A stretch of 64,000 nucleotides of DNA, taken from the NCBI GenBank assembly GCA_024679065.1, contig JAGIQG010000009.1, forward strand, positions 42,098,001 through 42,162,000, written 5' to 3'. Origin of the DNA: Sphyrna mokarran (taxonomy: Eukaryota). The notes below the pieces were generated by a model. It made no database searches. It worked only from the letters and a program-made list of their open reading frames with translations, and was not told the origin of the DNA. Every line of letters begins with the position of its first letter. The first letter of the stretch is position 1. Shown piece after piece: positions 32,430-64,000 of this stretch. Both the position numbers and the translations under genes were made by a program.

Positions 32430-33665
32430 ACTGCTTGGAGATTTGGTATGAGACATCAAAAGCTATTTTTCCTCTTATCTGATTTTCTGAGGGAGGCATG
32501 TAAATTACTGCAAAATGGTATGGTTCCACTGTAACCCAATTCCCCTTCATTTCTGCCCATTTCACACTGTTTGCTCTACTTGCCCTGCAACTGGTGTTCA
32601 AAGTTGTTGAGCTGCAAATGCACATCATTATAAAGAGGTTAAGAGGAAGATTGGAAATTATGCACAGTGACCATTTTTTAAAAATCACATTCTTTCCCCC
32701 TCTGCTTTAACTTAGGCCTTTTCAGAGCCTTTGCTATGGTTGCTGTGGTGCTATCTGAAAACTCTATGTAATCTCTGCTTTTTTTTAAAAAGAGGAGAAA
32801 CAAGCATGGATGCCAGGTATATCTGGCTATACATTAGTCACTTGGAACACCTTGAAACAAGAATCAGGCAGGGGTATATACATTTGTTCCAGCAGCAGTG
32901 CTTGCAGAAGCTTCAATCTGCTAGGAAAGCTACTGTGGAGGCATACTCTATCTTTTTATTCTATTTTAAATTTATATCCAATCAAAAATCAAATTGGTCC
33001 AATCAAAGTTCCTACAAGAGAGACATTACACATCCAAACTGACAAGACAGGCCCCACCTTCCCTGTCTTGGGCTTGATCAACATGATCCAAGCTGATAGG
33101 AATAGGCATTACACCCCCTCCAGTGTTTGATCTGAGCTTCATCTTATTCTATATGTTGAAAGCACAACTATAGCCACAGCGAAAACTGTACTCAATTTAA
33201 GTGCATTGAAGAATACTTCAAACATCTGCCAGGAACACTGCAAATATCAGCCAATCAACATTGCAGAGATAGGTGAAGTAGGTCACTGACACTGTGAGAG
33301 CATCAGATTTCAACATCTTTCCACAGACACCTACAGCACTTCAAGACAGCTTGGCGATTTTAAAGTGGCAGGATTTTCAAAGTACAAAACATTATTGATC
33401 ACAAACATGTGGTCTAAAAATTCCATTACATAATGTCACTTGTCATACTTGTGCAGGCATGAGGATTATGCATTTTGAAAAGTTTTATTTTAAGATTACA
33501 GTGGCGATTCTCCGGCCCTGCGCACTCATGCGCAGATCATACTGGGCATAGAGAATCATGAGGGCAGGGCCATAGTCCATGTAGTGTCGGCAAGAATCCC
33601 CTTTGGGATTCTCCCCACCCCCCGTATTGATGTAATCTAGTTTCCACACTGTGAGATATTTGAAG

Positions 33666-40680: not shown

Positions 40681-40868
40681 ATTTAGGAACCCCACCTGTC
40701 CTGACTGCTGGCTGGTGTCAGGGCAGACCAGTTGAACAAACTCCTTCAGAGTTTCCTGACTAGGATGTGGATGATAGCGGATGGCCGTATGCGAGAAGTA
40801 AGGACCTGGCTGCTGGATGATGGGAGAAGTTGGAAAATGTAGAGTTGAGGCTGTTGCATGGGGACTCG
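40681..40868 (-). CDS. NFIA: NFIA coding exon (about exon 8), 188 nt: (A)[62 protein letters not shown]
   Basis: Manual translation of the minus strand matches the vertebrate NFIA segment [48 protein letters not shown]...QVGFLN. Acceptor is ttttcttacag (AG at 40870-40869) and donor is AAT|gtaagg (GT at 40680-40679). Phase 1 in, phase 0 out. Not present in the ORF track. Confidence 0.97.
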
Positions 40869-43320: not shown

Positions 43321-43906
43321 AGGCCCTATTTTACCGTTTTGATTCAAAGTGCTGGGCAGACTTGAAACTGGGAGTGTTTCAGATCTGACGTAAAGACCCA
43401 TTCTGAGGTGTCCCCATACACACACTGTCTGACAAAATATCAACAATTCCGAAACGCGCTGTAGAAGCCTGTGGGTGGGGCTTAACACACCCAAAATCCT
43501 GTAACTTCCATTGGCTCCTCCACTGCGCATACACAGCAAAAAAAGATAGAATGCTGCTGCTTTGCCACATTCCTCCCGTGTCGGATAAGGCCTCCCCGGC
43601 CCCTCAGACATTGCCCCAACCTCACAACGTTTTGCCCCAATTCTGGATGGGGGAAGACGGTGGTAAAGGGGGAAGTGCCATTAAGATTGGGCATGCAGCC
43701 AATTAAGTCAATTTAAATGCATGCAAATACATTTAAATAGTTGTCGCGCCCATTTCAGGCATGATCCCGATCGCGGCCATTTTCAGATCTTGGTAAAGGA
43801 GGAACCGGCATGAGGGTGGGCGTGAATCATGCTACTTGCCTCATGCCTGACTTTACCAGGTTTTTGCACTTGAAAACGGATGCAATGCGATGGTAAAATC
43901 GGGTTC
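43321..43906. mobile_element. About 585-bp MITE nested in the Harbinger fossil
   Basis: TIRs ggccctattttaccg / tggtaaaatcgggtt. Relatively CpG-rich, so probably younger. Internal palindrome atttaaatgcatgcaaatacatttaaat. Confidence 0.75.
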
Positions 43907-60654: not shown

Positions 60655-60999
60655 TAATCTAGAATCCCTACAGCGCAGAAGGATGCCATTGAGCCCAACA
60701 AATCTGCACTGACTCTCCAAAACAGCATCTTACCCAGACACAGTTCCTCACCCTATCCCCATAACCCTGCACATTTACCAAGGACAATCCACCTAATTTA
60801 CATATCTGTGGACACAAAAGGTAAGTTTGAATGGCCAATCCGTCTAACCTGCACATCTTTGGACTGGAGAGGAAATCGCAGGATCTGGAGGAAGCCCATG
60901 CAATCATGGGAAGACCTCTACACAGGCAGTCACCCAAGGCCAGAATTGAACCCTGCTTCTTGCCGCTGTGAAGCAGCAGTGCTAACCACCATGCTACCC
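60655..60999 (-). mobile_element. HE1/V-SINE (CR1-type tail)
   Basis: tagaatccctacagcgcagaaggatgccatt...gcagcagtgctaaccaccatgctaccc. Confidence 0.9.
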
Positions 61000-61559: not shown

Positions 61560-62611
61560 CAAAGCTAAAAGTCTCACAACACCAGGTTAAAGTGCAACAG
61601 GTTTATTTGATAGCACAAGCCACAAGCTTTTGGAGGGCTGCTCCTTCATCTGGTGAGTGGGATTTCAGTTCACAAACAGGACATATAAAGACACAAATTC
61701 AATTTACAAAACAATGGTTGGAATGCGAGTCCTTACAGGTAATCAAGTCTTAAAGGTACAGACAATGTGAGTGGAGAAAGGGTTAAGCACAGTTTAAAGA
61801 GATGTGTATTGTCTCTGGACAGGACAGTTAGTGAGATATTACAAGCCCAGACATGCGGATTAAAGATAGTGTGACATGAACCCAAGATCCCAGTTGAGGC
61901 TGTCTTTGTGTGTGCAGAACTTGGCTATCAGTCTCTGCTCAGCGACTCTGCATTTTCGTGTGTCGTGAAGGCTGGTTTGAAGAATGCTTACGTGAAGATC
62001 AGAGGCTGAATGCCCATGACCGCTGAAGTGTTCCCCAACAGGAAGAGAACATCTTGCCTGGTGATTGTCAAATGGTGTTCATTCATCTGTCGTTATAGCA
62101 TCTGCAAGGTCTCCTTGGGGCATCCTTTCCTGCAGCGTATCAGGCAGACAACACACTCCCACCATGTGAGAACACCATCTATCAGGTGCACAGTACATAC
62201 ACTCGCTGAGCAGAGACTGATAACCAAGTTCCGCACACAAGGAAGGCCTTAACCGGGATCTTGGGTTCATGTCACACTATTTGTAACCCCCGCGACTTGT
62301 GTGGGCTTGCAAAATCTCACTAACTGTCCTCTACACATCTCTTTAACCTGTGCTTAACACTCCCTCCACTCACATTATCTGTATCTTTAAGACTTGATTA
62401 CCTATAAAGACTCACATTCCAACCACTATTTTGTAAATTGAGTTTGTGTCTTTATATACCCAGTTTGTGAACTGAAATCCCACTCACCTGATGAAGGAGC
62501 AGCACTCCGAAAGCCAGTGGCTTTTGCTCCCAAATAAACCTGTTGACTTTAACCTGTGTTGTGAGACTTCTTACTGTATTTACCCCAGTTGAAAGCCAGC
62601 ATCTCCACATC
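61560..62611. mobile_element. Penelope-like retroelement remnant: GIY-YIG C-terminus between inverted terminal repeats
   Basis: The minus strand encodes VCLIRCRKGCP..ETLQML*RQMNEH...LPVGEHFSGHGHSASDLHVSILQ...RVAEQRLIAKFCTHKDSLNWDLGFMSHY, a GIY-YIG endonuclease end. 61566-61945 is the reverse complement of about 62203-62570. Confidence 0.9.
62481..62520 (+). ncRNA. Minimal type-I hammerhead ribozyme-like motif in the Penelope terminal repeat (possibly inactive)
   Basis: cac-CTGATGA-a-GGAG-cagca-CTCC-GAAA-gcca-gtg: core boxes, stem II and short stem I are present. The cleavage-triplet U appears mutated to C compared with the sister copies (gcttgtg). Confidence 0.6.
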
Positions 62612-63082
62612 AGATAAAGCTGTACAGGATGTTCAATACTTCAAAAAAAAAGCAGTTGAGAACTTCTTCCGTTTCATGAACATATAAAAATGCAGGTGCA
62701 AAGCCTAACCACATCTATCAATATTTGTCTTTTTATGATCAGGAGATCTGGAGTCAAAGAGTGTGCACAGGTACAACATTACGACTAGAGTCAAAAGGTC
62801 AATACTCTATTCATAGCATTGTACTGACATGAGGCAAAGGCCACTCCCTGGTTCACCAAATCCGCCTGAAACTACTTCAGGCGGATCTGAAGATTTTACA
62901 ACTTACAAACCTGTCAACATTTCTCAGCTTCATTATCTCGAGATTTATGTGAAACGTATGAAGAGAATTGTAAAAAAAACCTTTTGTTTAAAATCAATTC
63001 ACAATTAAAGCTCAGGATTTCCTTTACAAAATGATCATTTTGTAAAATCAACGAGCTTCTAAAGTAAAATACTACCATTTAC

Positions 63083-63124
63083 CTCGCGCTTGCATTGAAC
63101 TTTTGAACAAGCCGGCCGGGAGTA
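63083..63124 (-). CDS. NFIA: Candidate alternative 42-nt in-frame NFIA cassette exon, (V)LPAGLFKSSMQAR
   Basis: Acceptor ctatctctattttAG with a CTGAT branch-like motif about 30 nt upstream, and donor GAG|gtaaat. Length is a multiple of 3 and it is open in the phase-1 frame required by the next exon. CpG-rich in CpG-poor surroundings. No transcript evidence. Confidence 0.55.
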
Positions 63125-64000
63125 CTAAAATAGAGATAGTAATTTTTCAAAAATGATCAGTCGCTGTTCCTGTTAAGACAAGTGAACTCAATACCCTGTC
63201 GCTCTTTTCAGAATAAAATTATATTTAGATGTATATGAGGAATACAAAACTTCAAAAGGGAAGCAGGCTGTTTATAATTTTGTTCCTTTTTTAAAAAAAA
63301 TTCACATTTTTTTCAAGTAGTCATTAGAAAGATATAACAGAATAAGTGCACACAAAATAAAAGTATATGCACTGCTTTTCCAAAGAGTCAGTAATGTTGT
63401 TCAGCAGTATGCAGATCAAGGAAGTTGCAGTTTTGCTCTTGGATTCTCCCAGATTAGTCAATGTTAACCAGTGAGAATGCTGCAATAAGGGTCAGGTTCA
63501 GACAACTACTCATTTTAAGTCATTTTTGTTCAGCAGTCTTGCTACTTTGTTTTCTGACACAAGCATGTGTGAGTAAAGATGTGGGTGCGAATATTCTAAG
63601 CTTTAAAATTTCCGGCGTAAATTGTTAATAGGTGGGAGGCTTGAGTGTATTCAATATAATTGTCCTCTTCACCAGGACCTAACTTTAAAATCTTCCTGAA
63701 GGTTAATAAAAGATTGAAATGTCTGCTTGTTGCACTGTGCATGTTGGTACGCACAAGCATTGGATAAAAAAAAAGTGCATGGAAACAAGTTTTCCATTTT
63801 TCACATTCACTTGTACAGTGAATGCTCGATGCACGGCAACATTCCCTTTAGTCTGCCACGACAATGTGATTTAACCCTGTAATCAGAAAGACACTGCAAT
63901 AATTTGATGTTTCGTTTTTCACATCATAGAGCCTATTCAGTGCTATTCTGTGCTGAACAGAGTATGATGTGGCCCAATAAGGGAGAAATTAAGTCTACCA

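Follow-up and report, generated by a model that had tools for sequence, protein, structure and literature searches.

Does the intron that separates exons 7 and 8 of the NFIA gene in Sphyrna mokarran hold a small optional exon, or a stretch that merely looks like one? The question was raised by a sequence-only reading of 64,000 nucleotides of genomic DNA (hereafter the window, meaning the whole stretch that was analyzed), which proposed a 42-nt, frame-preserving exon on the minus strand and suggested that it might be ancient and lost in mammals, or else shark-specific. Here we compare this candidate with the real exons of the gene, with chance expectation, with known NFIA proteins, and with the corresponding DNA of two close relatives.

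NFIA Gene Context and Structure of the Candidate

The translation of exon 8 is 100% identical to shark NFIA RefSeq models, and the window therefore represents the shark NFIA gene, carried on the minus strand, as the sequence-only reading had held. Exons were mapped by tblastn over the window and 200 kb beyond the window end (Table 1), and their numbers follow what we take to be the mammalian scheme. Intron 7 is 29,329 nt long (29.3 kb), and it places the candidate 7,073 nt downstream of exon 7 and 22,214 nt upstream of exon 8. The earlier placement of the site in the C-terminal (transactivation) region of the protein is thus supported. Between exons 6 and 7, the gene carries exon 6b, an exon shared by shark, ray, and chimaera models but found in no bony-vertebrate model examined.

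Table 1. Coordinates of the candidate exon, its signals, and the mapped NFIA exons. Positions are those of the window unless a contig or locus is named.
Feature	Position	Strand	Basis or remark
Candidate 42-nt phase-1 cassette exon, NFIA intron 7	63083..63124	minus	GC 0.55, 4 CpG
Acceptor AG of the candidate	63126-63125	minus	sequence
Acceptor region of the candidate (branch-like CTGAT, T-rich tract, TAG)	63125..63162	minus	sequence; unchanged in organisms A and B
Branch-like CTGAT of the candidate	63160-63156	minus	36-32 nt upstream
Donor GTAAAT of the candidate	63077..63082	minus	5/7 consensus positions, including the last three exon bases; unchanged in both relatives
DR2-like direct-repeat motif of nuclear-receptor type, inside the candidate	63096..63109	minus	one mismatch; unremarkable
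NFIA exon 8, downstream partner of the candidate	40681..40868	minus	tblastn; identity to RefSeq models
NFIA exon 9	22184..22349	minus	tblastn
NFIA exon 10	19026..19117	minus	tblastn
NFIA exon 7	G000:C1548:42168326-42168198	minus	tblastn; outside the window, 6.2 kb past its end
Exon 6b, 75 nt	L022:9371-9445 (G000:C1548:42169745-42169671)	minus	intact, 1.3 kb above exon 7

When the sequence was read directly, the AG, the 42 nt, and the GT at 63124-63083 (minus) matched the letters given earlier exactly, and the exon shape, the coordinates, and the GTAAAT donor were all confirmed. No further AG occurs over the 37 nt upstream of the candidate. Its length is a multiple of three and its phase-1 frame is free of stops, in agreement with the 14 frame-preserving codons that had been claimed for it. 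The first residue had been assigned on the assumption that the upstream exon ends in G. The last base of exon 7 is indeed G, followed by GT, and exon 8 begins at 40868 with CG, so that both junction codons work and the Ala is restored.

Two further observations concern the neighborhood. A homolog of a 15-residue cassette found only in catsharks lies at about G000:C1548:42174330-42174287 (minus), 12.3 kb beyond the window end, with 11 of 13 aligned residues identical. It has an AG just upstream, but its donor place lacks a GT, and judging from these letters the exon annotated in the catshark lineage is apparently not spliceable at that donor in this genome. In addition, the repeat behind a 50-residue insert in Scyliorhinus torazame has copies in the same intron as the candidate, at 60871-60999 (+) and at L002:178-297, the latter just beyond the window end.

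Splice Signals Compared with Chance

We scored splice signals by a simple rule based on what we take to be the splice consensus, with thresholds set at the candidate's own values and hence favorable to it. The branch-like motif, pyrimidine tract, and good donor described by the sequence-only reading were recovered as CTGAT, 12 of 17 pyrimidines in the acceptor, and 5 of 7 donor positions. By this score, the candidate is on par with real NFIA exons and equals exons 6b and 7 within 2 pyrimidines.

Across 175.6 kb of NFIA intron, the sense strand has 2 frame-keeping look-alikes that pass the strict rule (the candidate included) and the antisense strand has 0-3, while a set of 20 shuffles gave 1.25-2.75 per shuffle. 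When the branch-point rule, failed by five of the nine real NFIA exons, is dropped, the same 175.6 kb yields 8-12 look-alikes in sense, 11-14 in antisense, and 7-11 per shuffle. Within the 29.3 kb of intron 7, the candidate is the only look-alike that meets the branch-point rule. From these counts, signals alone would be expected to produce roughly 0.5-1 such case per 64-kb window, and the candidate exceeds chance in part. A second frame-keeping look-alike, of 60 nt (L022:8492-8551, minus), lies between exons 6b and 7 and meets the same strict rule; it has no CpG, and none of the segments that the stored proteins show between exons 6 and 7 corresponds to it.

Base Composition and Copy Number

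The GC and CpG content is the unusual part of the candidate, rarer than its signals. GC is 0.55 in the candidate vs. 0.26 and 0.31 in the 100-nt flanks, and the four CpGs attributed to the 42 nt were counted again. The candidate is one of ten such GC islands in these introns, and 0.16% of the 42-nt intronic windows contain 4 CpG, forming 20 clusters. The CpG density of the candidate, roughly double that found in any real NFIA exon, was equaled by 0 antisense look-alikes and by 0 look-alikes in the 20 shuffles, a control that is lenient for CpG density because block shuffling dilutes CpG clusters. Two other CpG clusters, at 43732-43809 (6 CpG) and 33491-33546 (4 CpG) in introns 7 and 8, have no second copy within the 264 kb examined and are possibly regulatory elements.

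The candidate is single copy in the genome (G000), where searches with both DNA and protein returned only the self-match; this genome search skips very common words, and an old diverged repeat could escape it. No second copy was present within the 264 kb examined, and no paralogous copy was found in G000. Within the reach of these searches, we rejected the idea of an exonised transposable element, as the candidate showed no dispersed-repeat membership and its sole match in the genome was itself. The DR2-like motif was recognized with what we take to be the half-site consensus, and sites of this kind with one mismatch number 19 in about 176 kb. No Rfam family reached threshold (best E 0.098), the three sub-threshold matches in 62000-64000 lay elsewhere than on the candidate, and the fold of the candidate did not stand out from shuffles (z -0.12 to -0.78 and +0.28); these results speak against a structured or known non-coding RNA. 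A hairpin or terminal inverted repeat was likewise rejected, as it does not beat shuffles.

Search of NFIA Proteins

A large protein collection cannot be searched directly with so short a peptide as that of the candidate, and the absence of this peptide therefore rests on 465 distinct stored NFIA proteins. This set comprises the best 120 of 573 exon-8 matches, the best 120 of 576 gar-region matches, and the listed cluster members; 35 members of three shark/ray clusters fall outside it, and coelacanth is represented by one model without exon 7. Proteins of cartilaginous-fish type account for 168 of the 465 and represent 22 named species.

None of the 465 examined proteins (0/465) shares even a 5-residue word with the candidate peptide, and the best local score among them is 24 (self 67), with shuffled peptides scoring 21-32. 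The peptide had been described as missing from canonical mammalian NFIA, and its absence extends to all of the 465 proteins examined. The candidate is absent from the listed models of the 22 cartilaginous fishes, gar, bowfin, bichir, sturgeon, paddlefish, and teleosts, and from the examined models of coelacanth (the one without exon 7), frogs, and amniotes. Exons 7 and 8 were both recognized in 295 proteins, 278 of which join them directly, while the inserts at this junction are the 50-residue insert of S. torazame (10 proteins), a 19-residue insert of Pristiophorus (6), and a mammalian read-through-like model (1); in 44 proteins, one side (exon 7 or 8) was unrecognized. The candidate occurs in 0 of the 121 cartilaginous-fish models that have both exons. 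RefSeq models do capture rare exon 7/8 inserts in other sharks.

The exact pattern of a 25-nt core of the candidate gave 0 matches in metagenome contigs, a collection unlikely to contain shark DNA. Among the matches listed, literature titles and abstracts held nothing on such an NFIA exon, supplements and subscription papers being beyond the scope of that search. Shark is unmentioned in the sections consulted of a 2025 NFI review (PMC13637464), and the corresponding portion of another paper deals with first-exon isoforms only (PMC2805660).

Variation in Two Close Relatives

The set of relatives consisted of six runs of unrecorded type, from three organisms and three studies. The candidate was covered in organism A by run X1 (depth 10) and in organism B by runs X5 and X6, which come from one sample (depths of 8.6 and 4.8). 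The runs that lacked cover there, X2 and X3 of organism B and X4 of organism C, count neither for nor against it. The contigs of the relatives are continuous through the intron and so behave as genomic DNA, and X5 and X6 agree across the candidate. In the flanks, about 7% of the sites in organisms A and B diverge from the window. Counts of variable sites are limited to L022:583-1153, and the difference tables omitted 5 and 9 differences, whose position near contig ends we infer from how the tables are sorted and from their tallies of changes.

The AG, the GT, the branch-like motif, the length, and the frame of the candidate are kept in both covered relatives (2/2, A and B). At the flank rate of change, the AG and GT would be kept with a chance of 72% and the 12 signal bases with a chance of 38%. 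A 44-nt invariant run that covers the acceptor region is no longer than chance (P 0.60), and the 25-nt core with the DR2-like motif, unchanged in both relatives, is also not beyond chance length.

Five sites within the candidate vary vs. the two relatives, and four of the five changes are non-synonymous, where the neutral expectation for the non-synonymous share is 0.71-0.75. Organism A has three residue changes among the 14 (Pro to Leu, Ala to Thr, and Ala to Val), and in organism B one change is synonymous and a single codon has changed at two of its positions (Ala to Met; 1/14 residues). The point estimate of dN/dS is 1.35-1.6, on five changes, some of them adjacent and perhaps single events. 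At a dN/dS of 0.1, at least four non-synonymous changes would have a P of about 0.01 by proportion or 0.0001 by count, probabilities that are weakened if the adjacent changes are single events. By comparison, shark models from different orders depart from the real exons 6b, 7, and 8 of this genome at 0-1 of their 24, 42, and 62 residues, and ray models at 1-3. The 14 residues of the candidate are thus likely to be under no detectable purifying selection, and the check for a conserved codon pattern that the sequence-only reading had proposed, as run in these two relatives, speaks against protein constraint.

The candidate and its flanks have similar proportions of variable sites (5/42 vs. 37/477, P 0.37), and between organisms A and B the candidate differs more than the flanks (4/42 vs. 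10/477, P 0.02). Only 1 of the 30 differences from the window that are common to A and B falls inside the candidate. In both relatives its CpGs are eroding, with 2/4 hit in organism A and 1/4 in B. The near flanks are less variable than more distant sequence at widths of 100 nt (8/184 vs. 29/293, P 0.034) and 150 nt (14/275 vs. 23/202, P 0.015); at 40 and 60 nt, which complete the four widths tried, the P values are 0.17 and 0.10. The share of 31-mers kept is 0.09-0.13 in the local stretch vs. 0.23-0.26 in the surrounding 10 kb. A perfect palindrome of 24 nt lies at 63023-63046, 37 nt below the donor of the candidate, and neither a substitution nor a gap is listed for it in either relative.

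Weighing the Possible Explanations

Our preferred explanation, held tentatively and with somewhat less than even confidence, is that the candidate is a young, lineage-restricted, rarely included cassette of NFIA, with its inclusion in transcripts being putative. Unique intronic DNA would have gained or retained an acceptor-donor pair. Exons 6b and 7, like the other inserts of this region, keep phase 1 and have lengths divisible by three, so that an occasionally included candidate would lengthen the protein by 14 residues between exons 7 and 8, in the low-complexity activation/repression region of NFIA, with the frame kept. Such rare inclusion would therefore be tolerated while the skipped form would remain the main product. 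The comparison of models indicates that the exon 6-8 part of NFIA repeatedly acquires lineage-restricted phase-1 cassettes, and rare inclusion and amino-acid drift would be expected of a young exon in such a setting. In favor of this explanation we count the exon-grade signals, the GC island with its 4 CpG between AG and GT, the unchanged signals and length in organisms A and B, and the quieter flanks at 100 and 150 nt. Counted against it are the chance rate of such signals, the 72% and 38% odds of their being kept at the flank rate, the variability of the candidate relative to its flanks, the low share of 31-mers kept locally, the eroding CpGs, and the 0 of 121 cartilaginous-fish models. According to parts of a review, species-specific exons tend to be alternative and of low inclusion, and cassette exons have higher non-synonymous rates and raised nucleotide conservation (PMC6695735). 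The raised nucleotide conservation expected of cassette exons is not seen inside the candidate.

Ranking close behind, and nearly as likely, is the explanation that the candidate is a decoy (pseudo-exon), that is, a chance AG...GT around a GC-rich intron patch that the spliceosome does not use and that was chosen post hoc as the best-looking one. It stands so high because decoys are common and the earlier reader did choose the best-looking case; in human introns, decoy exons outnumber real ones tenfold, as stated in a portion of one study (PMC3098058). Equal signal pairs arise 1.25-2.75 times per 175.6 kb in shuffles, or 7-11 times without a branch-point rule that 5/9 real exons themselves fail, and the same introns contain the 20 CpG clusters and 10 comparable GC islands described above. 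The neutral-looking change (4/5 non-synonymous vs. 0.71-0.75 expected) and the absence of the peptide from all 465 proteins are also what a decoy would show. Against it, a CpG cluster bounded exactly by in-frame signals is the sole case on either strand and in the 20 shuffles, and the near flanks are somewhat conserved. This quietness of the flanks, whose variation within 150 nt is roughly half that of distant sequence, would suit a modest intronic regulatory DNA element with the CpGs and the DR2-like motif at its core and with incidental splice signals, as would the unchanged 25-nt core in both relatives and the single-copy nature of the stretch. We consider such an element improbable: one-mismatch DR2-like sites abound (19 in about 176 kb), the 25-nt run does not exceed chance length, the CpGs are the very sites that change, and neither Rfam (no family at threshold, best E 0.098) nor folding (no better than shuffles) lends it support. 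It would account for the CpGs and the quieter flanks, and would leave the exact borders unexplained.

Least probable of all is that the candidate is an ancient coding cassette with a function, conserved in sharks or in jawed vertebrates at large and later lost from mammals; this is the bolder of the origins first suggested for it, and we regard it as largely refuted. The exon-like signals, the phase, and the GC step agree with it, and with only 1 of the 30 differences common to A and B in the candidate, constraint on that branch is possible. However, the peptide is absent from the 465 proteins, the shark and bony-vertebrate models examined included, with a best score (24 vs. self 67) within the shuffled range of 21-32. 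Residue changes of 3/14 and 1/14 have accumulated at only about 7% intron divergence, where real exons show 0-1; four of the five nucleotide changes are non-synonymous, and at least four of them at a dN/dS of 0.1 would have a P of about 0.0001-0.01. The failure to find a paralogous copy in G000 also counts against it. Among the features that would mark a conserved coding cassette, the candidate has the signals and the frame, whereas selection on codons, conservation above that of the flanks, and presence elsewhere were not found.

Returning to the candidate as a young optional exon, a more specific version would make it a tissue-specific newborn exon, derived from unique intronic DNA and not from a transposon, restricted to one shark lineage, and encoding a fast-evolving 14-residue spacer; this version is putative and, in our judgment, unlikely. 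If it is true, the exon 6-8 region would be a hotspot of exon birth and loss, given also the inserts in catshark, sawshark, ray-finned fishes, and frogs. If spliced, the candidate would yield another lineage-specific isoform of NFIA and would illustrate, on a small scale, how exons arise in the slowly evolving genomes of sharks. NFIA isoforms are many and their roles are poorly worked out, as parts of the 2025 NFI review put it (PMC13637464). The candidate would leave knowledge of NFIA and of splicing unchanged.

Comparison with Known Systems

Several annotated NFIA exons resemble the candidate. In catsharks, an exon of 15 residues ahead of exon 6b (in 17 models that include exon 7) is lineage-restricted, small, frame-keeping, and phase-1, and the 17-residue exon of ray-finned fishes and the 10-residue exon of frogs are small, frame-keeping, phase-1, and limited to one lineage. 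All three are annotated and occupy the interval between exons 6 and 7; the unannotated candidate sits in the next interval, between exons 7 and 8. We rejected homology of the candidate to the fish, frog, catshark, or sawshark inserts, with which it has no sequence in common. Closer in position are the 50-residue insert of S. torazame (10 models) and the 19-residue insert of Pristiophorus japonicus (6 models), each at the exon 7/8 junction, in the same intron and phase as the candidate, and each seen in a single species only. These two inserts match dispersed repeats in G000, whereas the candidate matches only itself.

Exon 6b is, like the candidate, optional, symmetric in phase 1, and set in low-GC flanks. 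It differs in being annotated in sharks, rays, and chimaera and nearly invariant (0-1/24 residues among sharks), whereas the candidate is unannotated and freely changing. The decoy exons of long vertebrate introns, as portrayed in part of a study (PMC3098058), share with the candidate good signals, no known use, and neutral change. What the candidate has beyond a typical decoy here is a GC/CpG island that ends at both signals. By analogy with these systems, the candidate, if real, would belong at most with the lineage-restricted cassettes of NFIA.
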